From an uncultured Candidatus Saccharibacteria bacterium (lineage in GTDB: Bacteria; Patescibacteriota; Minisyncoccia; Phycocordibacterales; UBA918), in the NCBI GenBank assembly GCA_964552045.1, contig CAZKFF010000004.1, positions 20,368 to 84,367 of the forward strand: a stretch of DNA of 64,000 nt, given 5' to 3'. The position numbers and the translations under genes are program-made. Each line of letters opens with the position of its first letter. The stretch's first letter is position 1. Shown here piece by piece: positions 22,301 to 54,964 of the stretch. The notes below the pieces were generated by a model, which worked only from the letters and a program-made list of their open reading frames with translations, had not been told where the DNA came from and made no database searches.

Positions 22301-25300
22301 CGTCACCCACGATCAACGTCCCGTACTGATCTCCGTCAGAAAGTTTCGTATTTATCGAATAGCCTGCCCCCGCATCAAGGATGAGTGTCGCTCCGCTCCA
22401 GGTAGTTGCACCGCCGCCGACATTGTTCGTAAAGACATTACCGACATAAAGACGGGTGCCGCTCTGCTGCGTGAACGATGACGCCAGTGACAGTGAGAAG
22501 TTGTGCGTAGCGGTCGCATTGCCAGTTATGGCCCATCCGCCGCCGGCGTTTGCCAGAACTACATTGTAGAAATTGCTGTTGCCCGGATCTATGGTCTCGC
22601 CGGCATCAGCTGAATTGAAGAGCACCGTGCCGGTCGCACTGTCGAACAATCCGCCTGACGCATCGAATGAGCCTCCGATCGCAAGCGTGCTCGAAGCGAA
22701 CAGAACTGATCCCTGCGCGATACGCAGATCGTCGAGAAGCGAGAGGCTCTCATCCTCCATAGTAAATGTGCCGGCGCCGCTGAATATGACTGCATACAGA
22801 TCAGAACTCGAAGCAAGCAGGGATGCGCCGGTGTCATTGGTGAAATACAGGTCTGCAGTATTGTGGACGATATCCCCTCCGGTATTTCTGAAGTCGCCAC
22901 CGACAGCGAACGCGCCTGACGGCAGCGTGAGCGTTCCCGCCTGGACCGTGACCGATCCGGTTGTGGTCGCATTGGCGTCAGTCATGGTCCATGCGCCGCC
23001 CACCCCGTTGAAGATGAGCTCCTCAAGATTCGAACCGCCGGCGCGGAGAATATTGCCGGTTGTTGCCGCGTCGAACACAAGCGTGCTGCCGTTGATCACA
23101 AATGAACCACCGTTGTTGCTGAACGAACCGCTCACGGTGGTTGTGCCGGTCGGGAACGTAAGCACGCCGTCTGTAATGAAGATGTTCTGTACATCGAACG
23201 TGGCATCGGTTATGCTCCAGCTGCCGCTTCCGCTGAAGACCGTGTTGTAGAACGATTCACTATTGGCGTCAATTGTGCGCGCAGCACCAGTTGTCGTGAA
23301 CGTTGTTGTCGACAAACCGGCATCGAAGGAGGCATTACTGCCGAGGATGAACGAACCGCCGATGCTGTGCTCCTGCGCTCCAGAGAAGCTGACTATTGCA
23401 TTGGCATAGGCTTCGAATGTCCCGTCGTATGCAGCGCCTGCGCCGCCTCCCTGAAGGGTAATATTCCCGTCAGGTTCGAATTCCTTTCCGCTCCACACGA
23501 TGAGCTTTCTGTTCGCAGGCAGCACAAGCGTATCAGGAGAACCGTCAATGGCCGTAAATGGGATATCAGCATCATCTGAAGAATCCCACACTGCCATGTC
23601 GGCAATGTTCAGCGGATCAGTGCCCTCGTGACGTACGATCACGCGGTTCTCATATATATGCATATTGCCGATGTTCGAGACCGGATCCTCAGTGACCGTC
23701 GCACCCTTCTGTGTTTCACCATCAATGTACGCGACAATGGAATCACCAGGACTATATGTGACCCCGCTGACGCTGTACGCGCCTGTTGTTGCATTACAGC
23801 TTGCAGCGTATGACGTCAGTCCGGCAACGCGTACGGTGATATTGTTTGTTGTTCCATCGCAGACTCCTGATACGGTCGTTCCCTCGTCACTGTACACATT
23901 TCCCGCGATCGTAATATTCGCCGCACTGTTATCCCATACGATATAACCGGGGTCACCGTCCGGGTCAACGTCATGCTCTTCGCCGTCGAGCGAGCCGGTA
24001 TGGTTCGTGAATCGCCACGAGCTCACCGACGTGCCGGTTGCGGTGACATTGAACGCGCTGATGCCGGTGGTGGTACTGAAGTTGTTGTTGGTGAACGTCT
24101 GCGCCGGATTGATATCAATGACCGTTCCCCCTACAGTGATACCACTGCCTCCTGCTTGTGCAATCTCGAAATCTCCGTGAGAAAGTGTCACCACGTGCGG
24201 TGCGCCGCTGAATGTAAGGCCTGCGCTGTTGATATCCTCTACGGCATAGTAACTCCAGGAGGTTGAGGCACTTCCTCCGATCAGAAGACTGTACGTTCCG
24301 CTTCCCTGGTTCTCGATGGACGTCGACGCTGAAGCGCTGCCGAGCACCTGCAACCCGCCGGAGAGAAGGTTCATACCTGCACCGCTTTCGAACCGCACAT
24401 GCGCCTGGCGCTCTGTTCCTCCACCGAGCACTGCACCGTCGAAGTCTGTCGCGTAGCTCCAGTGGTCAGTGCCGCCGTTGCCGCCGTAATTTCCATATAT
24501 AAAGAGGTCGCCGTCTACTCCTGCGTGATCCTGTGAATACAGCGATCCTGACGCATCGACAACGTACGCAGAAGCAGAGGAATTCCACATACGAATGTCG
24601 GTATTCGTCCCTACAGCGAAGTTCTCATACGTATCGCTGATGGTCTTTGCATTTATTTCATAATTGGTACCGCTTACAAAGCGGAGCGTGCTTCCTGTCC
24701 AGGTGGTTGCCGCTCCGCCGAGCGCATTGGTGAATGAGCCGCCGAGGGCAAGACTCTGTCCGCTTGCAAGCGTGAACGCTCCCGTGCTTGAAGCAAGCAT
24801 GAAGGCTCCTGTTGTTGTTGCATGTTCGCTTATAGTGAAGTTGCCGCCGCCATTGACGGTGAGGTTGCCGAAAGGAGAAGTTCCCGCAGCGATGTTTATT
24901 GCTCCTGAGCCGTTGAATGTCACTGTTCCATTGCTGCTCGTGTACGTACCGTCATTGTCCCAGCTGCCTGCAACAGTGAACAAACCGGAATTGCTGCCGA
25001 TGAGCGTACCGTTGCTGCGGATGACAACGTCTCCATTGACGCCAAGCGCAGTGTCATGAGTGTCAAAAGTTGCCGCGGTAGCGCTCTCTCCACCAACGGT
25101 AAGGTCATGGAGCACCAGAATACCCAGCCCGGTTGCGGTATAGGTCGGCGCACCCGCACCCGCATTGAGATCAAGATCGTAATACGTTGTGGAAAGGAGA
25201 TTGGTCGCGCTGCCCCCACTGTACCGCACAGTACTCTGGTCCTCGAGGAAGGTACCGTTCTCAACAAAGACCGTGCCGGTTCCCGACAGGTCGAAGCGTG

Positions 25301-28300
25301 AAGCTCCGGCATCGAGATAGTGCCCCACAGCGATGAAAAGCGTTCCGCCTATGGTTGTGGTGGCTGTACCCGCTGGCGTGGTGGTGCCAATTGTTGTTCC
25401 ATTGCCGAGCTGGAGGTTATACAGGGTCCATCCCTGCGATCCGCCGAGCGTATTCGACTGTTCGAGCGTGGTCGTGCCGCCCCCAAGCGAGACCAGCCCT
25501 TCGCCGAAGAACGAACCATTCGGTATGGATATGTCACCGGTGCCGGTTACCGTACCGGTCGCTACCTCGATGTCGTCAAGGGCTGCGATATCGCCGTTGA
25601 TGTTCCAGCCGCCGCCGATTCCGCTGAAGCGGAGCTGATTGAATGTTGCTGTCTCGCCCAAAGCGACATCGATCGCCTTGCCGGTTGTGGTTGCCGACAT
25701 GAGGACGCTCGAGGAGGCTGCACTGAATACTGCTCCGGCACTTTGCGTAAATGTGCCGCCGATGGTGTATGTGGTCGTGCCGTTGCCGATGAATGAAGCA
25801 CCGTTTGCAAGATAGAGCGATCCGTCATAGTCAGTGCCAGTTCCGCCGCTTTGGAGCGTCACAGTACCCCCGGGAGTGAATGTTGTTGAGGCCCATACGA
25901 AGAGCGCATTGTCCGGTGCAACAGTGAGGAGCGGTTCAGTTCCTGTCGCCACAGTGAAGATAATATCGCTGTCGAACGTGCTGTCGTGCACCATGTCAGC
26001 GATGGTCATAGACGCAGTATCCTCGTGCCGCGTGATAACGCGATGTGCATAGAGATCAAGGTCACCAATGTCCTCTGTAGGGGTCTTCGTCACCGTCACT
26101 GCCGTTTCTCCGCCCGATGCTCCATTGAGGAACACCGTGACCGTCGGATCGCCGACGATCGCCACTCCGCTCATACTCCACGAACCGTCAACATTGCTGC
26201 ACGAGGTGTCATAGGTGGATCCATCCTCAACTACGATGCGGACAGGCGTTGACACTCCATCGCACGTGCCACCGGTAAGCGGAGTGGCGCCATTGTCTGC
26301 ATATACCGTTCCTGAGAGCGTGAGCGCAACCGAACTGTCATCCCACCGGATCGAACCTGGATCACCGGTGTCATCATCGAATGCTTCACCGTCAAAATCT
26401 CCGGATGTCTGCCTGAACCACCAGTATGATGTCGGCGAGCCGCTTGCAGAAACGTTGTATGGTATGAACGCATTTACAGACTCTTCACTTCCCCATGTTC
26501 CGTGTGAAGGTTCTGTTGCAACGATCTTTCGTATGAGCGCGAAATCCCAGTCGTTTGAAACAGTTTCCGAAAGACCACCTGTATTGAGTGCGAAATATCC
26601 TGTACGTCCGGTGCGCGCCCACGAATTCCACGTTCCATCGTCAAACCGGCCCAAGACAGATGTGCCATCATGATAGATCTCTTCGGTATACCATGTGCCT
26701 AGAGTCCACGGTTCAGAATGTGTCGGTCCCCATGCGACAAGGTCGTCGAGGAATGCCCGCGGAGTGAAACTTGAGAAGTTATGGAGAAGATAGTTATACC
26801 CCTGCCCGTTTGCTGTACTTGTTTTGATGCTCAAGCCTACACGCTGATCGTTGTTCGCACCGACTCTTGGGCGGAAACGTGCCCGGAACGCAAGGTTATT
26901 CCCTGTCTCGCCGGAACCTCCTTCAGACGCAATGATCTTTGCAGGATCTTTGGCAGTTGTCGTGGCAGTCAGTATGCCATTCGATTGAGAGTAACTGTCA
27001 ATGTTGAATGTCTGCCACTTGCTCGTGTCGAGTGAAGCACCCGAAAAGTCATCAAAGAACGTAAATGTCGCCTCACCGTCACTTTGGCTGCTTGCACTGT
27101 TGTTGCCATAGTACACATAAATGGTCGCATCAGAGCTCGAAAGATCTGCCGATACGTTAACCCACACAACAGCCTGATCGCCGTCGGTCTGGCTTTCAAT
27201 CCAATACGGAAGCAGCGTCTGTCCATCATCGGAAGTGAACCGCAGATCGCTGAAATCAGCACTGCCCTTGCTGCCAAGATACACATCATCACCGCTGTCT
27301 GTGCCAGAACCATAGTGTATGGTCATCATGATCGGGTAATCAGTTCCTGCTCCGCTTGCGCTCTGTACAACATGGCTTTTACGGTAATCCCAAGGGTCAA
27401 GCCAAGGAGATGACGAAGCTGCTGAACCGAAACGCACATTGAGTATCTGCAGTGCAGGATTAGCATCAATAACGCTCGCCGCAACACTTATAGAGCTTGC
27501 CGGCACAGTGAGATCAAAGTCACCATTTGCCAGAGAAGTGATCGAAGGAGTCCCCAAAAAGGCAAAGCCCGAAGCATCCGTATTCCGAACCTGATAATGA
27601 TCCGCATTGACTGTGCCTCCGGAAACGGTCAGTGCATAGGAGCCGCTTCCCTGGTTGTGTATGGTGGTTGTCGCGCTTGCTGTGCCGAGTATGTTAAGTG
27701 AGCCTCCACTGAACGTCGCACTTGAACCCGCTGCAAAAGCAATATCCGCCTGGCGTTCAGACCCCCCAGCGAGTGATGTTCCGTCGAAATCAGTGGCATA
27801 GCTCCAATGCTCAGTACCGGATGCCCGTTCATACGATCCCCAAATGTAAAGATCGCCATCAACGCCGCTATGGTCCTGCGAATACAGTGATCCGTCAACC
27901 GTATAGGCCGTTGATGAAGAGTTCCACATGCTCACGTGAGTTGTTGAAGCCACACGGAGAGTGCCATAGCCATCAGCACCTGCAGTTTTTGTATTGAGCG
28001 CAAAACTTCCGCCGCCAAGCGCGAGTGTGCTTCCCGTCCAGGTGGTCGCGCTTCCTCCTGCACTATTAGTGAACGTACCGCTAACAGAGAGCGTCTGGCC
28101 CGAAGCAAGTGTGAATACTCCCGCCGATGCGAGTGTAAAATCGTTCGTCGTGGTGGCGTTGCCGTTGATGCTCCAGCCGCCTGTGCCGCTATTGAATGTC
28201 ACGTTGTAGAGCGGAGATGACCCGAGCACAATGGTTTCGCCAGCATCATTCGAATTGAAGAGGACCGTGCCGCTGTTATGCACAAGCGTTGCGCTGTTGG

Positions 28301-31300
28301 AGAGCGAACCCCCCAGGGTCAAAGTACCGCTCGGCAGAGTGACCGTACCCGCAGTTACCGTGAGACTGCCCTGCGCTGTCACCGATGCGTCGACAAACGA
28401 CCAGCTGCCGCTTCCCGTAAAGGCAAGACTGTTGAATGGAGCATTCGTATCAATGGAATGAGTGCCGCTCCCGGTAAGGCGGACCGTACCGTTATTGTGA
28501 GCGAACGTACCGCCGGTATTGAGGAAAGAACCGCCGACTGCAAGAGAAGCGCTCGGCAGCGTCACCGTCCCCTGCACAATGCGGAACTCGTTTGATGTCG
28601 TGGCATGAGCTTCAGTGAACGACCATGAACCGCTCCCCTGGAATCGGACGTCGTACAGCGCATTGGTGAAGGTACCCCCATTGAACGTCAGCGTTTCGGC
28701 GGTGCTCGAATTAAAGAGTACCGATCCGTTATTATGCGCAAAGCTTCCCCCTGAGTTGGTGAATGAGCCGGCAATCGTCGTTGTACCGGTCGGGAACGTG
28801 ACCGTACCTGTTGCTATAGAAAGGTCGTTGTTGATGCCGAGTGTACTTTCGGTGAACGACCATGAACCGCCAGAACCGTTGAAGATAAGGTTATAGAAAT
28901 TATCGCCGCCTGCGGTGACGATCTGTCCGGGCTGCGTGCCTGAAAACGTTACATCACCGTTGCGCGGATTGAAGGTGTTGTTGTTGACCCAGTTACCATA
29001 CACCACAATATCGCGGTTGGATGTCGAAAGATCGAATGTGTCATCGCTACCAATGGTTACAGAAGACGCTTCAACATTACTTCCGAGCTGTACCACCTTA
29101 CTGACGCCATTGACAACCGCATAGCCGATATTCTGTTTTGGCGTGCTGTTGTCACTCCATGTTGCGATGCCAGTGCCGTCAAAAGTGGTCGTTCCAACAC
29201 CTGTCCAGAGACCGTTCGCCTGTGTGGTCACATTGCCCGCGACAGTGATCGTTTCGCTTCCGCGCGCAAGCGTGCCGTATGCGACAGTGAGCGCATTATC
29301 AACGTCAAGGCTGTCTGCGATCTCCCATTCTGATGTACCGCTTCCCTCACCAAACGTAACAGTGTAGAAATCGAGCGTACCGTCAGCGTCAGTAAGCGTG
29401 TACGGCAATCCGGAAGTGGAAGACGCAAAGGATTCACTGGCGCTTACCGCATAGAATGTACCCGGACTTGAGATGTTGCGGTACTCCGCATCAAGCCAGT
29501 CAGCGGTACGTGAGACGCTCGAAAGTCGCACCTCATCCATTGTACCGTCGAACGAACGCGCAACCCCGAAGGAATCCCATCCGAAGTCAAGATTGTTGAT
29601 GGTCGAGAGCGTATGCGTCTGGACATTGCTGCCTGAGGTCACTCCGCCTTGTGCATGTGCATACAACGTCGCCTGCGTCGGTTCGACCACGAGCGATGCC
29701 ATGTACCATTCATTGGTTGGATAGACCGCGCCTCCGGCAAAGTCCCACGCCGTCGCCGCAAGGTTCTCCCAGTGGTAGCCGATGCGGCTGGTATCCGTAC
29801 ACGCACCCGCGTTCATACCGTTCACACCGGTGCCGCGGGAGAACATGACGCCATCGCAGGCACCCTGCGTGCCGTCGGCGTCAAGGAAGATCGACCAGGT
29901 CGAATTCAAAAGCGACTGGCTGAAATTGGTCTCAATGCGTTCATCAACTCCGTCAACCTCGGCTGCGCCTCCTGCGATGCCGGCAACCCGGTCGCCTGCT
30001 TCCATGTTCACTGCCGTACCAGATGAATTGCCGGTACTATCGGCATATTGCGGCGCGCTGGCGCTCGGGCTCTCATCGAAGTGATAGACCGCCTCATAGT
30101 CGTTGTTCCATACATTCTCTGAGCCGTTGGTGGCATTGGAAGCATAATCGCTTGCACTGCTGTTGCCGTAATAGATATAAAATGTGGTGTCGCCTGCAGA
30201 AGAAAGGCTGTCGGCCTGGAAGTATATCTCGCCGGTCTGCGCGCCGGTATCAATGGACACGATCTCGCGCGGCAGTTCGGTCTGTCCATCTGCGGTAGTA
30301 ATGCGTATGTCTCCCCCGTTGGTATTGACATTACTAAAGAACGTGCTGTCGAGGTCAGACAGATCAACGTACACAGGAAAATCGGTCACCGATGTATCTA
30401 TCTGCGAGGACTGTATTGTCAGCGGCAGGCGGTGCGACCATTGTGCATCATACCAGGGGACCGAACTCTGCGTGCTCGTTGCGGTAAAGATGACCGTCGA
30501 TGTAGCCATATTCGTGGTTGCATTGTTCTCCCACGAACCACCCACACGCAGTGTGTTGCCGTTGGCCGAAACTGTTCCGTTGTTCTCAAAACTGAAGGTA
30601 GTTGCATTGCCACCGGTGCCAGGCTGGTAGGTATTGCCTGCCTTGATATACAGCTCAGTTTCGGCGCATCCGGAAGAGGCGCAGACGCTGAGGTCGTTGC
30701 TCGCATTCACGTCGAAGAAGAGGTCTTCGTCATTGGTAAGGTCATAGAGACCCAGAGATGCGTTACTCACCGTTGCTGCGTCATCCGAGCCAACAACCAG
30801 ATGTCCGGCATACAGATCGAGGCCGCTCATATTGCCGACCCCGTCATACGCGGTTACCGCAACCGCTTCCGAGCTGTCGGATGCGCCGTCAATGAAGACT
30901 GTGACAACATCACCCTGTGCGACATTCACATTGGCGATGGACCACGTTCCATTCGATATCGTTCCCGTTTTCCCTGTTTGGAGGACGCCATTAACGGCGA
31001 TCGCAACATTTCCTGAAGCGACATTGGTCGCTTCATCGTACTGCAGCGCGGTTCCCGACACGGTGATCCCCGCAGCCCAGGTGATGGTCCAGTCTGAGAA
31101 TACCGGACAGGTGCCGATATTGCAGATGAGGTTCGCTACCGGCCGGATCTGGCCGTATGTGGATGCCGGCAGCACACCGGAGAGATCGATCGGACCGGTG
31201 CTTGTCCCGCTGGAATTGCCCGGGAGGAGCGAATCAGGGACAAGCTCCCATGAATCGCCGTCGTAGTATTCGATCTGGTAGAGAATATCAGAGCCATCAA

Positions 31301-34300
31301 GAGTGGTGTCCGTCCACGACATCTGCTGCCAGTACGGTCCTGAGCCTTCATTGAAATCAATGAGCGGCTGCCCAATGATCGTTCCGGAACTGCCCGGGTT
31401 CTGTACCGCGATCATGAACGGCTCCTTAAATGGCGCTGCTCCGACCGAACCATTGGACTCAAGCGTCTGCCGCGTTGTCCATGATGTTCCATTCCAGCCT
31501 GAATAATCGTAGCGGTCATTGACATCATCGTATGCCAGAAGCTGTATAAGCTGTGCGCCCGTGCGCTGCAGCTGCACGGTTGACGCATCAGAGATCGCGG
31601 CAATAGTCGCCTCGCCGGACCATCCACCATCATAGGTACGATAGCGGACTGCAGTAGTGTCGCTGTACGCGAGCATGATCTCACCGTCATTGGCGCCGCC
31701 GACCTCGAACATACAATCGACCGCACGCGACGTCTTAGAATTGCCCGCCGTATCAAGTTCAGTCCGCCCTGTCCAGCCGGAACCGGTCCATGGCACCACG
31801 CCGATGTCATTGTCGTTATCGATATAACACAAAGCCATGTCGTCTGATCCGACATCGGCAGCGATGCTTCCCCATTCGAAATCGTCTCCAAGTGCAACAC
31901 TCGCTGCACCTGTCCATGAGGAACCGTTCCACGCTCTCCACGAGAAGGATGCTGCACCGCCGTTGGAAACAGCAACAACAGCCTGGTCGCCGCTTTCTTC
32001 GTACGAAGCTGCTATACCTTCATTGATATCTTCAGACATAGCGCCCCAAGTGACAAAGTTTCCCCACGAAGATCCGTCCCACACCATCGCTTCATAATCT
32101 GATCCGAGGATATCGCGCACAATGGCAATGATCTCGTCAGAATCAGGATCGGATATGAGGCGGACCCATCCGCAGGCGTTCGTACCCGTGCGGTCAATGT
32201 CACCTTCATCAGACCAGGAGGTGCCATTCCAGATATGGTAGGAAGGATCTGCATTTCCGTCGCAGGCGACCGCAACGGCATCCCCCGAATTCGTTTCATA
32301 GGCTATATCAAAACCGCGCATGTCGACGTTCGAAATAGACGTGCTTATCTCTTCTAGGTTGCCCCATGCCCCGTTCTTGAACACCTGCAAATTGACATCC
32401 CCGTCGCTCCCGAGCGTTCCGGTGATGTATTCATTCTCTATCGGAGAGGACCGGGTCACGATCCAGTTGATGGTCGCTCCCACATTGAGCGCGCTCGATT
32501 CTGTGCTCCATGCAGTGCCTGACCAGCGCCGGTAGCGCGGCGTGGTGACGGTTCCTTCCGCGTACACGACGATTGATTCATCAGAGGTGGTTGCAACCGT
32601 AACAGTATCCCCCGACTGGGTATAGAGCCCGGAGAGAAGGTTATTGTCGAACTGCGACTGCGTTGTCTGGAACCAGGTAGAGACCGTAACCGACGTATCC
32701 ACCGTGAAGCTGCGCGGTGTTGTGTAGAACGAATAGGTATTCGAACCAAGCGGATCGCGCGCGCGAACCCTCCACCAGTAGGTAGTGCCATTGCTGAGCG
32801 CATCGCCTGCCTGCACTTCAAAGCGGATACTGTCGCCCGATGAGAACGGACTCGTGTCCGCGCCGCTGTCGACATTGGTGAATCCTGTATTCGTATCGGA
32901 TGTGCGCGTGGTCGGAGCCGAGAAGTCATAGCTTGTCGACCATTGGAGCTGATAGATGAGGTCGTTATCCTGCGGATCGGTGGTGGTGAATTCGAACGTC
33001 GGGGTGGTTGTGCTCACTTTTTCGTTCGCAAACGGCTCGCTGATGGTCGGTGTCTCGATGAGATAATCCCAGTCGACGCTCCAGCTTTGGATCGACGGCG
33101 ATGCGCCTGAATCAGTCAGATCAGCAGCGATACGGATCTCCGCATAGACGGTCTTATCAACCCCAAGGAGACTCACCGGCGATGTATCGAAGCCGGTGCT
33201 GTTGCCGGGGAGATCAGCATCAGGGATATCAGTCCAGGTATCATTGTCGTTGTACTGGATCGAATACTTCACATCACTCGATGTCTCCGTGTCTGCAAAG
33301 ACGAAATCGCCCCATGCAGTACCGAGTTCGCCTTCTTCGAAGGTGATCGGATCGCTGTAGACCGTACCAGTAGCGAACGGCGAGAGTATTTGCATCTGAT
33401 CGGACACGGCCGCCTCGACATTGAGGAGCGTGTTCGTTTCAAACTGCTCTTGGGTCGTCTGGAACCAGGTAGAGACCGTAACAGACGTGTCCACCGTGAA
33501 GCTCTGGATGGTCGCCCATGAACCCCATGTATTAGAGCCGTTCGGATCACGCGCGCGGACCCGCCAGTAGTATGTGGTGCCGTTGTTCAATGCAGTCGCT
33601 GAGTTATATCGTATGAGCTCACCATTGGTGAACGGATCCTTATCAGCGGGAGTGGCGAGGTTCTGGAACAGTGTTGCGTTTGAAACTGTGTTGTGATCGA
33701 CAACCGCGGAGCTGAAATCATAATCGTTGTCGATCTGTATCTGGTACTCAAGGTCATCAGTCTCTTCGTCAGCGGCACTGAATTCGAAGTTCGGCGTGGT
33801 GGTACCGATCTTTTCATTATCGAAAAGCTTGAACAGATCAGGAGCGTTCGGAGCCTGGTTGGTCATTACCTGCGGGTATTCGCTGTATGCAAATAACGGA
33901 GTACCATCCTGCTGTACCATGCGGAAGCAATATATCGTACCGGCCTCTGCATTGTTTTGCTGTACAACGAAATCCCATTCACCGTAGTCATCAACCCCGA
34001 TCGGGTTTGGCACGCTCGCAGTCGGATTGTTCTCCTCATAGGTGGCGAGCACGGTGGTGCTTGCGAGCGTTGCCGATGCAAGCGTGTCACCATCGTTTAC
34101 CCCGGCATTTTCATACCCTCGCCACGCCGCTGAAGAGGTTGCGCTGCCCACATCGGACCACACGGAGATATCCGTGCACAAAGCGGTCGTCGTTCCATAC
34201 TGCAACTTGAAGGAATCCGCAGTCGAGGTGGAATTGGTCACCTGAAGCTGCATGCGTATGCGCAGCGCATCTCCGCTTGCTAGCGGCTCGTCTTCGGATG

Positions 34301-37300
34301 TGATCGGCTCATTCTCCAGAAGGTCTGCGGCTCCGGCAGGATACGGGTCACTTGGCGTATTGGCATTCTCGTTCGCATAAAAAAGGTATCCCGTTTGCGT
34401 ATACACCGGAACAGCACCGAGCTTCTTTCCATAGATCACCGTGAGATACGGCGGAAGGTTGTTCGCAGTCGAGAAATTCGTGACATCAACCAGGTGCGTG
34501 TGCGCACCACTGTTACCCGATGAGCCTGAGCGTGCATTATCGGTGATCGTCGCGTCACTACTTACGATACCAAAGATATCAGCGTGCGTATGCGTAGCCG
34601 ACCCGCCGGTGGTTCCGTAACTCGTAGCTCCTTTGACGAATCTGCCATTGAACGGGTCAGACGGCGATGACGACCGGTCGATCCACTGTGCAGGCGGCTC
34701 ATCCGACCACATTGCGATGGCGCCCTGAGGTGTGGATGTGGCGATCCCAGCGGTCGCAAAGATCACTTCGATGAATGGTGGTTCGCTGTTGATGCTTGCA
34801 GTATTGGACGACACGCTGTGCGCATGGTTGTCGGCAGCACCGGTTACCTGAGAGCCTCCAAAACGCGAGTTGAGCGTCGAGACGTTGGAAGCCGCGGTGG
34901 TGTTTCCGGTGATGTTGTGCGTGTGTGTATTGCTTCCGCCGTTGGCAATACTGTTTTCGCCGCGCGGATAACGGCCATCAAGCGCTGAGAGCCGTGTCCA
35001 ACCGGTTGGCAGTGACGCGTCATCGAACATCATGATCGCACCAGCAGGAATGGTCGCGGGATCTCCCGCGCTGTTGCTCTGGATGACGCGGAACTGGCGA
35101 TATGCCGGCAGGTTTGAGACCGTGGAGATATTCGGGGTATACAAGTGCGAGTGCGTAGGGATACTGATCTCGCCTGAGCCGTTGTTCTCCGTATTGGTGG
35201 TATTGCTCGAGTTGACCACACCCGTTGCCGTGTGCGTGTGCGTGGTCGCGCCTCCAGTGGTGTTATAGGTATCGCCGCCCATAGGGAACCGCTGGTAGAA
35301 CGTGCCTGATCCGCAGGACAGACAGGTCCAGCCAGCAGGGATCGCAGCGCCGCTGTTCCAGAAGACGATCAGGTTCCCGGTCGCGTCAGACGCGATCTGC
35401 CACTGCCGGTGTTCTTCGAAGACCACACTGTTCATGTTCGTTGCTGCAACGCTCTCCATCGGCTGCGGTTCAGACAATACCGGAGCAGGTATTGCTCCTG
35501 ATCCAATTTCTGGAGCCGTTGTTGCCGATTGCTCTGCCTCCGGCTCCGTAAGTGCATCGGATGTTTCCGGTACTTCTTCCCCTTGTGTGTCCTGCGGCAT
35601 GCCCGCAGCCGGCACTTCCTCCGTACCCTGCTCCGTATCCTGTGGTGTTTCAACAACAGGCAGCGGCGCTGAAGTTGTTGCACCCGCTTCAAACAGGTCC
35701 GGCAGTTCTGAAGGCGTCGTGGTGCTTTCGCCTGCCGGCATCGGTGATGATGCCGGAGTGGTTGTAGCAGTCGATGATGCAGTTTCGTCGGCCGTACGCA
35801 TTGACTCGGGCAGTTCACCCTCAAGTCGTGCCGAACCGACCGTGTACAGATACGGCGAAATGTCAGGTGCATCAAAAGTGTATGCAAAACTCTGGCTCAC
35901 ACCGGCTTCCAGGGAAACGTCCCATGAGAGTTCCTGCACATCATGCTTCGTGCTGATTGCTGCGTCAGTTTTTGTGATGACAAACGACGAGGGGACCTGT
36001 TCAATGAGGGTTCCTTCCCAGGCTTCCTGTGCAGTAAGCGTTATTTCCATCGGATACTGCTCCAGTGGATATACGCGGCTCGGGCCTTTGCGCTCCAATA
36101 CAAACGGCAGGTTCTCTTCCACCATAAAGGTGTCTATGGTATGCGCCGCGATAGTGCCGTCTGCGTCAATACGCTCGAGGTACATTTCATGTTCACCTGC
36201 AACTTCAGGGGTGAATACCGCAGCGTAATCAGGCACATCAACGACATTGTTTCCATTGCAGAGACCCGATGCCTGAACCGGCACCTTTGAAAGAACTTCC
36301 TGCGGATCAATGATATACAGCGACAGTGCGGCATCGCAGATAGTATTGCCGTTCTGAGAAAGCGCTCCCATCGATATCTCGACCGTATCGCCAAGTTCGT
36401 AGGCTGTCTGATTTGAGTTTATGGAAAGAAGCCCCCACTGGAATGAGAACGTATCAGTGTATGTTGCACCGCCTTCATTGATCGTTATCTCAACAAGGTA
36501 TTCTCCCGGACGCAGGCGTTCACGATCCTCCTCTTCCAATTGAATGTTGATGATTCCTTCATCAGTGATACTGACCTCCGGAGTTATCCCTACATCGCCA
36601 ATGTCCTTATGGACGAAGGAGACTGCTTCTACCTCGGCGAGCTTACGACCGAACAGATCGCGGAAGAACCGTACTGCGAGGTTGCGTTGCGACGTATACT
36701 TCAGGCTGAAATGCGGCAGCTCTTCACGGGTGAAGTCTATGTCTTCGCTCATGAGCGTATGCATCGACGGATCAGACAGACGCCGCAAGAGATCCCGCAC
36801 CAATCGTGCATGGAGCAGTTCTTTGTCGAGATGTTCAACTTCGATCTGCAGCCATGCGGTGTCGATGTACACTCCACCGAGTTGCTCCGTATCACCTTTG
36901 TATACAACTTCGACTTCAACATCATTGAGCTCGGCAATGCTTGCTATCTGCGGCAGCGCAAACAGGAAATAACCGCCGTTGAGTGCATTGGATACCTCAC
37001 CGTCTATAACGATCGTGCCCACCTGCTGTGTGGACGAGGGCGTTTTGTAATTGATCTCCAGCACAGGCGCTGAGGATGACGCTTTTGGTTCATACTGCGC
37101 CGCCAGAGACATGCGCAGCTGCATGCCCGTTATGAACTCACCGCGCTTGAGCTCCGGAGCACTGAAGTCCGACAGGGTAAATACGTACTGCGAAGGCGGC
37201 TCTGCTGGAGCTTCAGATTCCTCAAGTACGTCGCCAGTTGTCGTTGCCTGATCCTGCGAAATGGTTTCTTCCGTTGATGTTGCCTGCAAAGTATTCGGTG

Positions 37301-38375
37301 TCTTCTCTATGGGTTCCTCAGGCGAAGTCAGCGCCTCCTCGGTCTGAAGCGGTACCTCTTCCATAGATGGCTCAACAGATTCCGGCTCTTGCAGCATAGG
37401 GTCAGAAGCCGGAATTTCAGACGCCGCTTCACTCTCTGGTTCAGGTTCAGGTTCCTGCGCAGGTTCAGGTTCCTGCGTCTGTTCAACTGTTGGTTCCAGT
37501 TCTGCTTCGGGCTGTGCTTCCGCTTGCACGACTGCTGCTACCTCTTCTACCTCCGCATCATTCATGAATGGGAAAAATTCCGTTACCGTTCCGAGGAATG
37601 CAAACAGCGTCTCTGTTGCTTTTTTCAGCACTACGGGCTGCGACGTTTCATCAGCAGGAGCGGGAGTTTCTTCAGTCTCTGGTTCAGGTTCAGGTTCCTG
37701 CGCAGGTTCCGGCGTCTGTTCAACTGTTGGTTCCAGTTCTGCTTCGGGCTGTGCTTCCAGCTCTAGTGCCGCCGGTTCTTCTATCTGCACAGGCGAGTTC
37801 GTCGCCGCAGGCTCAGAAACCGGTTCCACAGTTGGAGTTGCTGTCTCGGCTGATGTGGTTGCAGTTGTCGTTGCGGTCGATTCTCCGGATGAGGATGCGC
37901 CGTTCGGAGGAGTCATCTCGGACTGTGCATCCTTCTGTGCCGCTTCGTCGGAAGGTAGCGGCACATGCGCGGAATTGTGCCGGGTGAATTCTTGGTACAG
38001 CGCCTCTTCATCAAGATCAGGAGAAAGCACCTGCTCGACATCGGTCCAAGTGCTGTTTGTCACTGAACCCGGATAGATATGCAGGGTGTTTTTAACGCCG
38101 AGCTGCGTGTCTCTGTCCTCCGCCTGAGAATATGCGCGATCAATGCTTAGACCACCGATTGCGATAACAAGCAAGAGGAGAAGTGCGCGAGATATGACCG
38201 TCTTCCACACTGATGAGAGATGTAGTTTTGTCGTTCCATGAGAAGGCTTCCCATTCTGAGAAACAACAAAACGCCCTGCAAAAGATTCCAGCGCTCTAAA
38301 TATGAATATATTAAATTCCCTCCTTGTTTTTTTTGAGAAAAATCTCATCGAGAACAAGCAGCAAAACACCCCCAA
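19323..38375 (-). CDS. Giant (6,350 aa) membrane-anchored modular surface protein. Residue numbers and approximate coordinates follow.
- N-terminal TM anchor: aa 61-78.
- Acidic Pro/Glu tandem linker.
- Phage tail-collar-like HxH repeat region: aa ~990-1320 (34416..35408).
- LQYG/YCFRMV domain: aa ~1380-1505.
- Two tandem FN3-like units: aa 1506-1906.
- WxGxxW 8-repeat propeller-like region: aa ~1940-2330.
- DUF2341-like modules: aa ~2640-2745, ~3660-3765, ~5596-5705.
- LamG/concanavalin-like modules.
- Three copies of a ~550-aa parallel beta-helix module: aa ~3140-3660, ~4180-4790, ~5040-5560.
- C-terminal ~260-aa Cys-containing shared domain: aa ~6085-6350 (19323..20123).
   Basis: Single uninterrupted ORF; residue count verified at 6350. 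The listed start is TTG (an in-frame ATG lies at 38348). Motif evidence:
- DUF2341 signatures (W..R.P.TI......T.FPV.V.L......DIR.T..DG.T.LP.EI.......A.IYF......S...TFYIYYGN) occur three times.
- LamG signature (...W.IFLDADG...FDG.MDEVRLS).
- Tail-collar-like HTHTATG...THSHLY, SNTHTHNITG, DNHAHSVS, SATHTHADIFG, GAHTHLVD...PPYLTVIY. Confidence 0.8.
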   Translation of the reverse strand: MGVFCCLFSMRFFSKKTRREFNIFIFRALESFAGRFVVSQNGKPSHGTTKLHLSSVWKTVISRALLLLLVIAIGGLSIDRAYSQAEDRDTQLGVKNTLHIYPGSVTNSTWTDVEQVLSPDLDEEALYQEFTRHNSAHVPLPSDEAAQKDAQSEMTPPNGASSSGESTATTTATTSAETATPTVEPVSEPAATNSPVQIEEPAALELEAQPEAELEPTVEQTPEPAQEPEPEPETEETPAPADETSQPVVLKKATETLFAFLGTVTEFFPFMNDAEVEEVAAVVQAEAQPEAELEPTVEQTQEPEPAQEPEPEPESEAASEIPASDPMLQEPESVEPSMEEVPLQTEEALTSPEEPIEKTPNTLQATSTEETISQDQATTTGDVLEESEAPAEPPSQYVFTLSDFSAPELKRGEFITGMQLRMSLAAQYEPKASSSAPVLEINYKTPSSTQQVGTIVIDGEVSNALNGGYFLFALPQIASIAELNDVEVEVVYKGDTEQLGGVYIDTAWLQIEVEHLDKELLHARLVRDLLRRLSDPSMHTLMSEDIDFTREELPHFSLKYTSQRNLAVRFFRDLFGRKLAEVEAVSFVHKDIGDVGITPEVSITDEGIINIQLEEEDRERLRPGEYLVEITINEGGATYTDTFSFQWGLLSINSNQTAYELGDTVEISMGALSQNGNTICDAALSLYIIDPQEVLSKVPVQASGLCNGNNVVDVPDYAAVFTPEVAGEHEMYLERIDADGTIAAHTIDTFMVEENLPFVLERKGPSRVYPLEQYPMEITLTAQEAWEGTLIEQVPSSFVITKTDAAISTKHDVQELSWDVSLEAGVSQSFAYTFDAPDISPYLYTVGSARLEGELPESMRTADETASSTATTTPASSPMPAGESTTTPSELPDLFEAGATTSAPLPVVETPQDTEQGTEEVPAAGMPQDTQGEEVPETSDALTEPEAEQSATTAPEIGSGAIPAPVLSEPQPMESVAATNMNSVVFEEHRQWQIASDATGNLIVFWNSGAAIPAGWTCLSCGSGTFYQRFPMGGDTYNTTGGATTHTHTATGVVNSSNTTNTENNGSGEISIPTHSHLYTPNISTVSNLPAYRQFRVIQSNSAGDPATIPAGAIMMFDDASLPTGWTRLSALDGRYPRGENSIANGGSNTHTHNITGNTTAASNVSTLNSRFGGSQVTGAADNHAHSVSSNTASINSEPPFIEVIFATAGIATSTPQGAIAMWSDEPPAQWIDRSSSPSDPFNGRFVKGATSYGTTGGSATHTHADIFGIVSSDATITDNARSGSSGNSGAHTHLVDVTNFSTANNLPPYLTVIYGKKLGAVPVYTQTGYLFYANENANTPSDPYPAGAADLLENEPITSEDEPLASGDALRIRMQLQVTNSTSTADSFKLQYGTTTALCTDISVWSDVGSATSSAAWRGYENAGVNDGDTLASATLASTTVLATYEENNPTASVPNPIGVDDYGEWDFVVQQNNAEAGTIYCFRMVQQDGTPLFAYSEYPQVMTNQAPNAPDLFKLFDNEKIGTTTPNFEFSAADEETDDLEYQIQIDNDYDFSSAVVDHNTVSNATLFQNLATPADKDPFTNGELIRYNSATALNNGTTYYWRVRARDPNGSNTWGSWATIQSFTVDTSVTVSTWFQTTQEQFETNTLLNVEAAVSDQMQILSPFATGTVYSDPITFEEGELGTAWGDFVFADTETSSDVKYSIQYNDNDTWTDIPDADLPGNSTGFDTSPVSLLGVDKTVYAEIRIAADLTDSGASPSIQSWSVDWDYLIETPTISEPFANEKVSTTTPTFEFTTTDPQDNDLIYQLQWSTSYDFSAPTTRTSDTNTGFTNVDSGADTSPFSSGDSIRFEVQAGDALSNGTTYWWRVRARDPLGSNTYSFYTTPRSFTVDTSVTVSTWFQTTQSQFDNNLLSGLYTQSGDTVTVATTSDESIVVYAEGTVTTPRYRRWSGTAWSTESSALNVGATINWIVTRSSPIENEYITGTLGSDGDVNLQVFKNGAWGNLEEISTSISNVDMRGFDIAYETNSGDAVAVACDGNADPSYHIWNGTSWSDEGDIDRTGTNACGWVRLISDPDSDEIIAIVRDILGSDYEAMVWDGSSWGNFVTWGAMSEDINEGIAASYEESGDQAVVAVSNGGAASFSWRAWNGSSWTGAASVALGDDFEWGSIAADVGSDDMALCYIDNDNDIGVVPWTGSGWTGRTELDTAGNSKTSRAVDCMFEVGGANDGEIMLAYSDTTAVRYRTYDGGWSGEATIAAISDASTVQLQRTGAQLIQLLAYDDVNDRYDYSGWNGTSWTTRQTLESNGSVGAAPFKEPFMIAVQNPGSSGTIIGQPLIDFNEGSGPYWQQMSWTDTTLDGSDILYQIEYYDGDSWELVPDSLLPGNSSGTSTGPIDLSGVLPASTYGQIRPVANLICNIGTCPVFSDWTITWAAGITVSGTALQYDEATNVASGNVAIAVNGVLQTGKTGTISNGTWSIANVNVAQGDVVTVFIDGASDSSEAVAVTAYDGVGNMSGLDLYAGHLVVGSDDAATVSNASLGLYDLTNDEDLFFDVNASNDLSVCASSGCAETELYIKAGNTYQPGTGGNATTFSFENNGTVSANGNTLRVGGSWENNATTNMATSTVIFTATSTQSSVPWYDAQWSHRLPLTIQSSQIDTSVTDFPVYVDLSDLDSTFFSNVNTNGGDIRITTADGQTELPREIVSIDTGAQTGEIYFQADSLSSAGDTTFYIYYGNSSASDYASNATNGSENVWNNDYEAVYHFDESPSASAPQYADSTGNSSGTAVNMEAGDRVAGIAGGAAEVDGVDERIETNFSQSLLNSTWSIFLDADGTQGACDGVMFSRGTGVNGMNAGACTDTSRIGYHWENLAATAWDFAGGAVYPTNEWYMASLVVEPTQATLYAHAQGGVTSGSNVQTHTLSTINNLDFGWDSFGVARSFDGTMDEVRLSSVSRTADWLDAEYRNISSPGTFYAVSASESFASSTSGLPYTLTDADGTLDFYTVTFGEGSGTSEWEIADSLDVDNALTVAYGTLARGSETITVAGNVTTQANGLWTGVGTTTFDGTGIATWSDNSTPKQNIGYAVVNGVSKVVQLGSNVEASSVTIGSDDTFDLSTSNRDIVVYGNWVNNNTFNPRNGDVTFSGTQPGQIVTAGGDNFYNLIFNGSGGSWSFTESTLGINNDLSIATGTVTFPTGTTTIAGSFTNSGGSFAHNNGSVLFNSSTAETLTFNGGTFTNALYDVRFQGSGSWSFTEAHATTSNEFRIVQGTVTLPSASLAVGGSFLNTGGTFAHNNGTVRLTGSGTHSIDTNAPFNSLAFTGSGSWSFVDASVTAQGSLTVTAGTVTLPSGTLTLGGSLSNSATLVHNSGTVLFNSNDAGETIVLGSSPLYNVTFNSGTGGWSINGNATTTNDFTLASAGVFTLASGQTLSVSGTFTNSAGGSATTWTGSTLALGGGSFALNTKTAGADGYGTLRVASTTHVSMWNSSSTAYTVDGSLYSQDHSGVDGDLYIWGSYERASGTEHWSYATDFDGTSLAGGSERQADIAFAAGSSATFSGGSLNILGTASATTTIHNQGSGSYALTVSGGTVNADHYQVRNTDASGFAFLGTPSITSLANGDFDLTVPASSISVAASVIDANPALQILNVRFGSAASSSPWLDPWDYRKSHVVQSASGAGTDYPIMMTIHYGSGTDSGDDVYLGSKGSADFSDLRFTSDDGQTLLPYWIESQTDGDQAVVWVNVSADLSSSDATIYVYYGNNSASSQSDGEATFTFFDDFSGASLDTSKWQTFNIDSYSQSNGILTATTTAKDPAKIIASEGGSGETGNNLAFRARFRPRVGANNDQRVGLSIKTSTANGQGYNYLLHNFSSFTPRAFLDDLVAWGPTHSEPWTLGTWYTEEIYHDGTSVLGRFDDGTWNSWARTGRTGYFALNTGGLSETVSNDWDFALIRKIVATEPSHGTWGSEESVNAFIPYNVSASGSPTSYWWFRQTSGDFDGEAFDDDTGDPGSIRWDDSSVALTLSGTVYADNGATPLTGGTCDGVSTPVRIVVEDGSTYDTSCSNVDGSWSMSGVAIVGDPTVTVFLNGASGGETAVTVTKTPTEDIGDLDLYAHRVITRHEDTASMTIADMVHDSTFDSDIIFTVATGTEPLLTVAPDNALFVWASTTFTPGGTVTLQSGGTGTDYDGSLYLANGASFIGNGTTTYTIGGTFTQSAGAVFSAASSSVLMSATTTGKAIDVALGETATFNQLRFSGIGGGWNINGDIAALDDIEVATGTVTGTGDISIPNGSFFGEGLVSLGGGTTTLEQSNTLGGSQGWTLYNLQLGNGTTIGTTTPAGTATTTIGGTLFIAVGHYLDAGASRFDLSGTGTVFVENGTFLEDQSTVRYSGGSATNLLSTTYYDLDLNAGAGAPTYTATGLGILVLHDLTVGGESATAATFDTHDTALGVNGDVVIRSNGTLIGSNSGLFTVAGSWDNDGTYTSSNGTVTFNGSGAINIAAGTSPFGNLTVNGGGNFTISEHATTTGAFMLASSTGAFTLASGQSLALGGSFTNALGGAATTWTGSTLRFVSGTNYEINAKTISDTYENFAVGTNTDIRMWNSSASAYVVDASGSLYSQDHAGVDGDLFIYGNYGGNGGTDHWSYATDFDGAVLGGGTERQAHVRFESGAGMNLLSGGLQVLGSASASTSIENQGSGTYSLLIGGSASTSWSYYAVEDINSAGLTFSGAPHVVTLSHGDFEIAQAGGSGITVGGTVIDINPAQTFTNNNFSTTTGISAFNVTATGTSVSSWRFTNHTGSLDGEEHDVDPDGDPGYIVWDNSAANITIAGNVYSDEGTTVSGVCDGTTNNITVRVAGLTSYAASCNATTGAYSVSGVTYSPGDSIVAYIDGETQKGATVTEDPVSNIGNMHIYENRVIVRHEGTDPLNIADMAVWDSSDDADIPFTAIDGSPDTLVLPANRKLIVWSGKEFEPDGNITLQGGGAGAAYDGTFEAYANAIVSFSGAQEHSIGGSFILGSNASFDAGLSTTTFTTTGAARTIDANSESFYNTVFSGSGSWSITDATFDVQNIFITDGVLTFPTGTTTVSGSFSNNGGSFVINGSTLVFDAATTGNILRAGGSNLEELIFNGVGGAWTMTDANATTTGSVTVQAGTLTLPSGAFAVGGDFRNTGGDIVHNTADLYFTNDTGASLLASSSDLYAVIFSGAGTFTMEDESLSLLDDLRIAQGSVLFASSTLAIGGSFDASGGLFDSATGTVLFNSADAGETIDPGNSNFYNVVLANAGGGWAITGNATATHNFSLSLASSFTQQSGTRLYVGNVFTNNVGGGATTWSGATLILDAGAGYSINTKLSDGDQYGTLIVGDDTDIRVWNSSADTTTVQPSASLYSQDHGGSDGALTIYGDFHVSTTTEYWSYATDFDGASLAGIERAVTVSIAGNATTTVDGGTLYMIGASGNSTTVQNQGSGTYAFAVSDGTFNALYYRYRDLNAEGLLFSGTPFITSLSQGDFELAVSGGSLITLSSATLDANASKVISGNRFATTTAITGTNVTLIGTTTNAWAFVSHTGNLAGEDYDDDGATACGSIRWNDSSCLLTQQTHYRWRHDDGGVDVPDSEWFNASWGARKRVRLENPDAATYTDAAVKLSVAYDAAMQGDFDDLRFTDASGTTTIPHFIERYTASADADIWVQVPSLAAEDITTLYMYFDNATASSTSSSADAFIAADDFEDGNITEYSGDTSLFNVGSSFAYGGSFGLDATAHESDKATDGIADTGLTVSQGQIIRYMQYVDTDAGNGDEVCTLFGVQSPVTSNQNYAICLEQFGVDRMSIVENAQNTDSSGTVLASSTVDFPTLGSGWYEVEIDWQTGGDMDVTLSKDGATAATASASDNTYTSGGIGFTFWFQNGGWDNYSARPHVDTEPTVYFGDKQVSGGASWAADLDESYAYTHGDIARLRVAVENSGLQITGQTFDIEYATKGAAPSCEAVSSASYAIVPPQSSCGSSPLCMQASSHLTDNGATTDLLFEVDGQFTSGKVVEDPSNTTAALTIDQDEYTELEYALTPTINASAPSYCLRVTDASDPLDTYLSVAELELRFDPIVTNVSLNGGAAIALVPGSTTTVYTTGTVTDLNGFDDLTHATATMYRSGVGAACTPDNNNCYVSAAPLCELSGCSGNSCSISCSADFYFHADATDAGSAYEGEEWLAAVEVSDQGGGIDIGSTPTTTQIELLTLHALDVDAAINYGPLAVSSTTGSYNPTTTVQNLGNVPIDIELEGTDLTDGGSSFIPASEQLFATSTFTYTACTSCSALSSTTATDLEVDLTKPTSSSSPVTDVVYWGIEIPYGVASNPHQGTNIFYAIGD
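32658..33859 (-). repeat. Internal tandem duplication (~810-bp period, two units) encoding FN3-like/ending-in-SFTVDTSVTVSTWFQTTQ modules of the giant protein.
   Basis: Protein residues 1506-1646 and 1776-1906 align. The DNA blocks ...gtctggaaccaggtagagaccgtaac.gacgt.tccaccgtgaagct... recur at ~32650-32710 and ~33440-33500. Confidence 0.65.
37437..37760 (-). repeat. Two ~80-bp copies (37437..37523 and 37680..37760) of an imperfect tandem DNA duplication with ~240-bp period, encoding the acidic linker AQPEAELEPTVEQT[PQ]EP..AQEPEPEPE inside the giant gene.
   Basis: Near-identical DNA blocks ggttcaggttcaggttcctgcgcaggttc...tgttcaactgttggttccagttctgcttcgggctgtgcttcc at ~37437-37523 and ~37680-37760. 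Confidence 0.7.
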
Positions 38376-42561: not shown

Positions 42562-43368
42562 TCACAAAACGCACCTGAATCCGATTGCGACTCCGGAAGC
42601 GGTCGGGAGCGTCTGAGCATGCACTGCATAGATGCCGGCATCGAGTCCGCTGCCGTAGAATCCACCGCGAAGCACGCCGAACGCTCCATCATTTGATGAC
42701 CACAGATAATCCTGATAGAACAATTCCGACGGAGAGCTACCGGTAAGGACTGCCATGCCAGAAGCATCGACCTGGGTGACATAGCCTGAGTGTGGCAACT
42801 CTCTTCCTGCATACATGCCCTGGAGCACGTCATCCGTAGTCCACTCCCACACATTTCCAATGCTGTCATATGCACCCACAGCTGAAATACATTCCTCATG
42901 GGTGCCGGTTGGTGAGGCGCCGCTTGCATCGATGTTACATGTGTGCGCATCATCAGGAGTGCCTACCGAAGAGAGATACCACTCATCGCTGCGAGGCAGC
43001 CGCTTCCCTGCGCGCATGCAGGCGGTCAGAGCTTGCTCACGGGTTATATACCGCCACGCGTCGGCGTCCGGCTTCGACTCCGCCTCGCATTGTGCGGTAT
43101 CCATATTCTCTCTGGTCTGCAACTCGTTTTGGGGATTCTTCTGCGGACACGAAGCCGCAGCGGACGCCTCGTACATGTCAACACACCGGTATGTGATTGC
43201 CATGGGCACTTCGACCATACCAGCAGGGCATGCACTGTCGTCTCCGGCTTTGATCACCTGACCCAACAGCGTCGAACGTGAACCCTGCAGCGTGTCGGCC
43301 GCATCGATCCCGAGCGCGGTTATGAGAACAGCGCCACAGATAACCGCCCCGACTTTGAGCAATTTCAT
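42562..43368 (-). CDS. Secreted FGE-sulfatase (SUMF1/formylglycine-generating-enzyme-like) domain protein, copy 1.
   Basis: 268 aa. Signal peptide. C-terminal family signature GVLRGGFYGSGLDAGIYAVH...GFRCVL plus conserved Cys/Trp-rich core (…CPQ.PQNE..T.EN...A.CE......W..I....A...C..AGKRLP...EWY...G). Confidence 0.7.
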   Translation of the reverse strand: MKLLKVGAVICGAVLITALGIDAADTLQGSRSTLLGQVIKAGDDSACPAGMVEVPMAITYRCVDMYEASAAASCPQKNPQNELQTRENMDTAQCEAESKPDADAWRYITREQALTACMRAGKRLPRSDEWYLSSVGTPDDAHTCNIDASGASPTGTHEECISAVGAYDSIGNVWEWTTDDVLQGMYAGRELPHSGYVTQVDASGMAVLTGSSPSELFYQDYLWSSNDGAFGVLRGGFYGSGLDAGIYAVHAQTLPTASGVAIGFRCVL

Positions 43369-53709: not shown

Positions 53710-53780
53710 GAAAATAAGGTGGTTACTGTAGCACGCACACGTGAAGACCGGATGAATTGCTCACACGGGCCGCTTTTTTG

Positions 53781-54920: not shown

Positions 54921-54964
54921 ATGCTTTTAATAGTTACATTTTTATAAGCGTCTTGAAGCCTTCC

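Follow-up and report, generated by a model that had tools for sequence, protein, structure and literature searches.

Three tandem units homologous to phage tail-fibre tips form a probable single-chain pseudo-trimer in a giant surface protein of an uncultured Saccharibacteria bacterium

The window analysed in this work, that is, the whole stretch of DNA under study, comprises 64,000 nucleotides of contig CAZKFF010000004.1 (GenBank assembly GCA_964552045.1, positions 20,368 to 84,367), assigned to an uncultured Candidatus Saccharibacteria bacterium. It contains a giant open reading frame (ORF) located at 19323..38375 on the minus strand, with 6,350 codons counted from a TTG start, although the ATG at 38348 is the probable start. 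Within the encoded protein, a module of three tandem units, each displaying two histidine pairs of the form HxH, was delimited at residues 993-1319. A first-pass annotation of this DNA had placed phage tail-collar-like HxH repeats at 34416-35408 with the strand unstated; the location is correct, and corresponds to residues 990-1320 of the giant ORF on the minus strand. The features of the module are the following (HMM, hidden Markov model):

34419..35399, minus strand: triple module, residues 993-1319, three tandem collar-needle units, modelled as one compact body
35073..35399, minus strand: unit 1 (U1), residues 993-1101, unit HMM E = 1.3e-28, translation verified
34746..35066, minus strand: unit 2 (U2), residues 1104-1210, unit HMM E = 2.3e-35
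34419..34748, minus strand: unit 3 (U3), residues 1210-1319, unit HMM E = 1.3e-29
35232..35240, minus strand: HxH 1a (HTH), residues 1046-1048, on the ascending strand of unit 1, (nearly) invariant in the family
35145..35153, minus strand: HxH 1b (HSH), residues 1075-1077, on the descending strand of unit 1
34917..34925, minus strand: HxH 2a (HTH), residues 1151-1153
34818..34826, minus strand: HxH 2b (HAH), residues 1184-1186
34584..34592, minus strand: HxH 3a (HTH), residues 1262-1264
34494..34502, minus strand: HxH 3b (HTH), residues 1292-1294
35154..35231, minus strand: apex loop of unit 1 between its two HxH, 26 amino acids, 73% S/T/N/G/A, overlapping a low-confidence stretch of the model; putative ligand-contact loop
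34827..34916, minus strand: apex loop of unit 2, 30 amino acids
34503..34583, minus strand: apex loop of unit 3, 27 amino acids, the least conserved part of the module with respect to the orthologue in L001 (60% identity; see below)

The units measure approximately 108 amino acids each and follow one another in a single reading frame, with junctions of 2-6 residues. Their N-terminal part conforms to the pattern 'IPxGxIxxF..PxGW..GRFxxG..yGtTGGsxTHTH', after which come an S/T/N/G-rich loop of 26-30 amino acids, the second HxH, and the segment 'NLPPYxxVIy', the two HxH of a unit being spaced 29-33 residues apart. Pairwise identity between units is 25-38%, with unit-versus-unit BLASTP E values of 4e-9 to 4e-12. 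All the motifs quoted in the first-pass annotation are thus present, but they belong to exactly three units, not to four to five. The six HxH of the module are the only ones in the 6,350 residues of the protein (none occurs in the remaining 6,023), compared with approximately 0.05 expected in the module at the background histidine frequency, and all 12 histidines of the module lie within these six motifs. An orthologous giant ORF with 73% identity overall was found in an independent metagenome-assembled genome (MAG; L001), in which 12 of 12 module histidines are kept and the module displays 80-90% identity; between both orthologues, identity is 60-89% in the apex loops versus 89-96% in the cores, albeit with small numbers. 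Across the family alignments, the histidine pairs constitute the most conserved columns, and the apex loops the most variable part, in length and in sequence. The triple module is a real feature, and one that is under selection.

The relationship of these units to phage proteins was revealed through their relatives. Direct searches with the window segment against PHROGs, NCBIfam and, using phmmer, the PDB gave nothing meaningful, and PF07484 (Collar) matched none of the three window units scanned singly; a WW domain (E = 0.14 on the window segment) was rejected as a chance 'PAGW..SGTFY' match. A protein search returned 110 relatives, of which the nearer ones bear two HxH per unit, as in the window, and the distant ones 3-5. 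These distant, long-needle relatives have a collar with 'GWxLCDG..TPDLRGRFxKG', the Collar signature; PF07484 weakly matches 10 of 48 family units (best E 0.0013), and the relative P0073 was already annotated with PF07484. The unit profiles of the window type and of the long-needle type align end to end (hhalign 99.7%, E 1e-25). When the joint family unit profile (A3) was compared with the PDB, matches were obtained to 9qgo_A (1.9e-7) and 9nxk_A (Pseudomonas phage Pa223 fibre, 4.5e-7) and, more weakly, to 7z47_I (SU10 short tail fibre gp16, 0.0044) and 6ov6_A (JUB59 prophage receptor-binding tip, 0.034); all four are three-chain entries, and the alignments extend from the collar as far as the last PPY strand. 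Judged by these profile comparisons, the module units are homologous to the receptor-binding tips of gp37-type tail fibres, through a link that is only transitive, via the long-needle units. The nearest solved analogues are the gp37-type tips of T4 gp37 (2XGF), SU10 gp16 (7Z47), JUB59 C24 (6OV6) and Pa223 (9NXK). Thus, of the tail-collar identity first assigned to these repeats, the homology to Collar/HxH phage tips stands, but the gp37 type replaces the proposed gp12/MdpB type, since T4 gp12 and MdpB were absent from the results of every sequence and fold search made. The family PF07484 (T4 gp12, MdpB-like) belongs to the same superfamily as the module by transitive homology, with 'GWxLCDG..TPDLRGRFxxG' present in the long-needle relatives.

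According to the literature, a gp37-like tip has three parts: a collar, a needle with Fe bound on its axis by HxH pairs of three chains, and a region at the apex that contacts the receptor. The gp37-type tips also include 9QGO, and in the solved cases the histidine pairs bind Fe/Zn on the three-fold axis. For instance, gp16 of phage SU10 is a trimer with a receptor-binding domain similar to the T4 gp37 tip, in which H194/196 and H230/232 were proposed to bind Fe2+ (PMC9509320); its two histidine pairs are approximately 36 residues apart, versus 29-33 in the module units. The order of segments along the chain is shared: after the collar comes the ascending strand with an HxH, next the apex, next the descending strand with its HxH, and the chain then returns to the collar; gp37-type tips end in a 'PPYxxVxfI'-like strand as the module units do. 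Conversely, gp37-type tips are homotrimers of separate chains located at the C-terminus of virion fibres, whereas the module contains three diverged copies in one chain and is internal to a cellular protein of 6,350 amino acids, approximately 1,000 residues from its N-terminus and outside any phage tail module; moreover, its needle is very short and it has no separate head domain.

An AlphaFold2 model of residues 985-1330 (346 amino acids) built on an alignment of 85 sequences reached a predicted local distance difference test score (pLDDT) of 88 and a predicted template modelling score (pTM) of 0.84, with low confidence confined to the three inter-HxH stretches; prediction from the single sequence (pLDDT 31) was useless. 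Foldseek found no match to this model in the PDB, which we judge to reflect a limit of comparing a single chain with a fused trimer, and no sign of an unrelated fold. In the BFVD database, the best matches were Pas29 (E 3.6e-15) and Pas28 (1.6e-14) of Actinoplanes phage phiAsp2, with TM-scores of 0.56-0.59 over the three units; next in the ranking were entries named 'Tail fiber protein' (1.3e-3) and 'Phage tail collar domain containing protein' (0.023). Therefore, while no Collar match was obtained, the Foldseek matches in BFVD point to phage proteins and not to a fold foreign to fibre tips.

The number of units follows a rule of three across the family. In the first search, exactly three units were found in 85 of 111 family proteins, the '2-unit' cases being fragments or split matches. 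When 1.84 billion cluster representatives, clustered at 50% identity, were scanned with the unit profile, at least 4,019 proteins were obtained, 1,511 of them at E<=1e-10. Among the top 147 new representatives, 118 have 3 units, 23 have 6, five have 4, one has 7 and none has 5, so that 141 of the 147 have 3 or 6; of the 23 six-unit proteins, 15 are arranged as 3+3 and 5 are contiguous. These top representatives include 41 proteins larger than 2,000 amino acids, eight of which exceed 5,000. Different proteins have spans of 30 to 77 residues from the first to the last HxH, whereas the three units of one protein agree to approximately 2 residues (intraclass correlation coefficient, ICC, 0.94; 0.91 for unit length), and none of 5,000 permutations reached the observed match. 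Both measures replaced the needle length obtained by a regular expression (from the first HxH to PPY), which was noisy due to mismatched motifs (ICC 0.52). Furthermore, the best non-self match of a unit is to the unit at the same position (U1-U1 in 73 of 77, U2-U2 in 71 of 80, U3-U3 in 80 of 82), and therefore the triplication is old and the triplet has been inherited whole. In single-unit relatives from the first search, the unit lies at the extreme C-terminus (15 of 15), preceded by an N-terminal part that is fibre-like and by a signal peptide, a layout that resembles the architecture of a homotrimeric fibre. A few relatives (P0236, P0224, P0245, P0250, P0122 and P0129) have 2 units, a gap of 100-350 amino acids, and then further units; these are the sole apparent exceptions to the rule, and may be triplets with a large inserted domain or with a unit diverged beyond the HMM.

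The same single-chain triplet was found in phages. Pas28 and Pas29 of phiAsp2, known only by the GenBank note 'possible receptor recognizing protein; contains HXHY motifs', have three units each with four HxH per unit, and are encoded in the tail module after the large 'tail protein' gene pas27. Proteins of approximately 420 amino acids from uncultured phages (P0031, P0045 and P0063) are built in the same manner, and such long-needle triplets were located in phage contigs beside a tape-measure gene in one case, an SU10-like portal/capsid in another, and VapE/Clp in a third. The phage triplets differ from the module in their longer needles and their 3-5 HxH per unit in heptad spacing (HxHxxxxHxH), besides being phage-borne. 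In the phiAsp2 genome, pas28 and pas29 are consecutive large genes (L004, 9850-16568) with heptad-spaced HxHxxxxHxHxxxxHxH ladders, and this cultured siphophage is a tractable system for the idea of a single-chain pseudo-trimer.

In contrast to the phage-borne long-needle triplets, the short-needle (window-type) triplets are cellular. Some are stand-alone secreted proteins of approximately 500 amino acids encoded in operons with a Peptidase_M73 (camelysin/TasA-like) protein, and others lie inside DUF2341/Ig_Rha78A surface proteins beside housekeeping genes. Giants bearing the triplet are labelled as Paceibacterota, as an 'Actinobacteria' MAG and as a Woesearchaeota archaeon: P0128 ('Actinobacteria bacterium' MAG) is a giant DUF2341 protein with the module, and P0117 (5,808 amino acids, MBN2422330.1, 'Candidatus Woesearchaeota archaeon') is a giant DUF2341 protein with two triplets. 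Provided that the binning is correct, the module occurs in more than one domain of life among ultra-small symbionts. Regarding the stand-alone proteins, P0006 and P0003 are encoded directly downstream of a Peptidase_M73 gene (L002 8330-12037, L003 2456-6163, L008 3555-5837), with a Peptidase_S26 signal peptidase just downstream of P0006; their N-termini read '..AYFTDNETS' or '..AFFSDAETS', which we take to resemble the SipW-dependent signal class. These loci suggest a TasA-like secretion or fibre operon displaying the knob.

Three homologous units, conserved histidine pairs, homology to fibre tips, a confident compact model and a family-wide rule of three were observed, and we propose that residues 993-1319 probably represent a tandem triplication of a gp37-type collar-plus-needle tip, folded as a single-chain pseudo-trimer that would act as a rigid, metal-stapled knob for adhesion or recognition. 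A phage tip is built from three identical chains wound about a three-fold axis, on which every metal ion is held jointly by one HxH of each chain. In the module, a single polypeptide would contain the three 'chains' joined head to tail and would thus fold alone as a pseudo-trimer, with a pseudo-three-fold geometry. The 'IPxGxIxxF..GW..GRFxxG' and 'NLPPYxxVIy' segments of the units would build a three-lobed collar, where the chain would both enter and exit, and the ascending HTH and descending HxH strands would build a short six-stranded needle. This needle would harbour two stacked, putative six-histidine metal sites (Fe2+ or Zn2+), one built from the first HxH of each unit and the other from the second, and the three S/T/N/G-rich loops would remain exposed at the apex. 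Because no partner chains are needed, such a knob could be placed mid-chain in a giant surface protein that is monomeric and anchored at its N-terminus. By analogy with characterized tips, binding of a ligand on the surface of another cell is the likeliest role of the module, and recognition of a receptor or glycan might be expected.

An arrangement comparable to the proposed one was reported for the virophage DSLV2, in which three consecutive PF07484 genes give rise to a 1:1:1 heterotrimeric gp37-like tip that binds cyanobacterial cells (PMC12724248). Like the module, the DSLV2 tail consists of three differentiated paralogous collar/needle units that are conserved in a position-specific manner; in DSLV2, however, each unit has its own gene and polypeptide and is part of a virus particle, whereas in the module the units are fused in one cellular protein. 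The DSLV2 heterotrimer, which was demonstrated experimentally, documents an intermediate evolutionary state. No account of a single-chain pseudo-trimeric HxH fibre tip was found in the literature searched, an absence that is no proof of its being undescribed.

A cellular use of phage-fibre-like adhesive tips is known from the mosaic adhesive trimer (MAT) fibres of Bdellovibrio, a bacterium living on other bacteria; in contrast to the module, these are homotrimers with C-terminal tips of diverse folds. Neither Bdello_MAT_N nor any other NCBIfam family matched the window segment, and the single-unit relative P0101 gave E 0.0079 with Bdello_MAT_N (16 bits, below the cut-off of 60).

Several points weigh against a metal-stapled pseudo-trimer. 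The pTM of 0.84 indicates that the predicted structure is a compact body, not that six histidines converge on an axis. The HxH counts are unequal among the units of some relatives (3-4-3, 1-2-2 and 2-2-1), and therefore some sites would have fewer than six histidines. Concerning homology, no Pfam family was found at E<=10 on residues 940-1360, so the HMM search with Collar that the first-pass annotation had put forward as a check turned out negative on the window sequence even at this threshold; the Collar model misses the window units because their collar is devoid of the 'LCDG..PDLRG' insert. The window-type profile alone retrieved only SU10 gp16 (7z47_I) among solved structures, with a non-significant E = 0.1. 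As to the family statistics, the unit counts stem from score-ranked lists, which are biased to multi-unit proteins, and the sequences are related, so the permutations overstate independence. Lastly, in the aligned orthologues the apex loops are only moderately more divergent than the cores.

Three other explanations were weighed. The units might be independent domains, each with its own tetrahedral Zn site of four histidines, in the kind of tandem lectin-like or collar array that the first-pass annotation had envisaged. Two HxH per unit suffice for one such site, and giant surface proteins normally carry independent domains arrayed in tandem; however, the pTM obtained over 346 residues is unexpected for three freely linked domains of 108 amino acids, units number 3 or 6 and almost never 2, 4 or 5, needle lengths are matched within proteins, and single units are found only at the C-termini of fibre-like proteins. 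Moreover, in the solved homologues the chains are intertwined in obligate trimers, with metal bound by HxH across chains, and some single-unit relatives (P0087) keep one HxH, too few for a four-histidine site within the unit. An array of this type is thus very unlikely; the protein has one triplet, whose three units most likely act as one body, a single pseudo-trimeric one. An artefact, either a prophage tail-fibre gene joined by mis-assembly or frameshift, or a chance low-complexity His/Thr pattern, was considered given the metagenomic source of the sequence and the GC content of the module (58%), slightly above the window average (53%). This possibility is effectively refuted, as the independent MAG L001 has the same module in the same place of the orthologous giant ORF, homologous giants of 5,600-6,500 amino acids carry the triplet approximately 950-1,500 residues from their N-terminus, no phage genes lie nearby, and the internal-repeat statistics exclude chance.

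The remaining alternative accepts the pseudo-trimer but assigns it a purely architectural role, as a rigid, protease-resistant, metal-stapled joint or spacer without any function in ligand binding. The HxH-metal sites of phage fibres and spikes are indeed regarded as stabilising elements, the module ranks with the better-conserved segments of the giant protein (80-90% versus 73% overall), and there is no sign of hypervariation or of a diversity-generating retroelement. Nevertheless, every characterized homologue is a receptor-binding tip (T4 gp37, SU10 gp16 and JUB59 C24), DSLV2 binds cyanobacterial cells by means of its tip, and phages use the same triplet in their tail modules; furthermore, the apex loops are the parts that vary most in length and sequence across the family, and those modelled with low confidence. 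We consider a solely architectural role unlikely, and favour the adhesion or recognition knob.

The neighbours of the giant gene include those encoding a MacB/FtsX ABC transporter, surface proteins with fn3, cohesin and dockerin domains, UmuC, an extracytoplasmic function (ECF) sigma factor (sigma-70), two FGE-sulfatase-like paralogues, and a sortase beside a DUF11 protein, with no phage genes among these neighbours. The giant gene is cellular and bacterial, as the first-pass annotation had stated. Two cohesin-domain and two dockerin-domain proteins flank it (38454-40004, 40597-42507, 6400-8160 and 10957-12102, all on the minus strand), which suggests a cohesin-dockerin surface scaffold in a probable bacterium of the candidate phyla radiation (CPR). 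The adjacent paralogues with FGE-sulfatase (SUMF1-like) domains, of approximately 267 amino acids each (42562-43368 and 43466-44269, minus strand), stand between a dockerin protein and a WxL-interacting/peptidoglycan-binding-like protein, and at 53050-58351 (minus strand) the sortase gene adjoins those of a DUF7601 protein and of a 1,128-residue DUF11/DUF7507 protein. The apex loops were also considered as the target of a diversity-generating retroelement, a candidate that was rejected since no second DNA copy of the module (template repeat) was found within the window and a crude screen (ORFs of 200-700 amino acids with a Y/F-x-DD motif) gave no candidate reverse transcriptase.

The giant protein is organized as an N-terminal hydrophobic anchor, linkers that are acidic or rich in Pro and Thr, the triple module, and then further domains, among them one Ig_Rha78A_N-like domain, three DUF2341 and long beta-helix-like repeats. 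Two features precede the module:

38142..38198, minus strand: hydrophobic stretch VISRALLLLLVIAIGGLSI, residues 60-78, read directly off the sequence
35421..35798, minus strand: T/P/E/A-rich low-complexity linker, residues ~860-985, N-terminal of the module

The stretch VISRALLLLLVIAIGGLSI is a probable signal-anchor or transmembrane helix. No LPxTG motif occurs anywhere in the 6,350 residues, and therefore the protein is probably not a sortase substrate. The linker before the module displays 36-48% identity to the L001 orthologue (100-residue blocks 801-900 and 901-1000). The N-terminal acidic linker (window 37400-37800, residues ~200-320) holds a near-exact duplicated block, 'AQPEAELEPTVEQT(P/Q)EP..AQEPEPEPE', and is the region diverging fastest from this orthologue (37-57% identity). 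Large internal duplications were observed in the C-terminal half (window 19323-29000, residues ~3100-5600), where segments of approximately 560-580 amino acids from L001 residues ~3100-3870 align to three regions of the window protein with 45-66% identity, and these regions include repeated DUF2341 blocks. Full-length homologues of 5,600-6,500 amino acids display 41-62% identity, and those with a name are designated 'DUF2341 domain-containing protein [Candidatus Paceibacterota bacterium]', from which the organism is probably a member of the Patescibacteria/CPR; no tRNA genes were found that could inform its taxonomy. Proteins of more than 4,000 amino acids bearing DUF2341 have been reported as common in Patescibacteria, with a proposed role in adhesion (PMC11809585).

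Taken together, the module is probably a fused single-chain version of the trimeric HxH fibre tip, one that is widespread and is found repeatedly in uncultured lineages as part of giant surface proteins. The family is large, without a Pfam or NCBIfam model and hence invisible to both. If the pseudo-trimer holds, an obligate homotrimeric, metal-stapled fibre tip would have become a self-sufficient single-chain domain by tandem triplication. A monomer presenting three different apex loops might also serve as an engineering scaffold for binders, because asymmetric diversification is impossible in homotrimeric tips. We advance only tentatively, as an unlikely extension of the proposal, that the fused triplet is a host-recognition determinant of ultra-small episymbionts. 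On this view, CPR bacteria (Paceibacterota-like) and DPANN archaea would display on giant monomeric surface proteins the tail knob of uncultured phages, the module would be exchanged between these symbionts and phages docking onto the same types of cell surface, and the merging of a homotrimer in a single chain would be the innovation by which a phage fibre tip gained entry to non-trimeric cellular proteins. With approximately 330 residues, the module provides an expressible adhesion candidate within the otherwise opaque giant DUF2341 proteins of Patescibacteria-like organisms.

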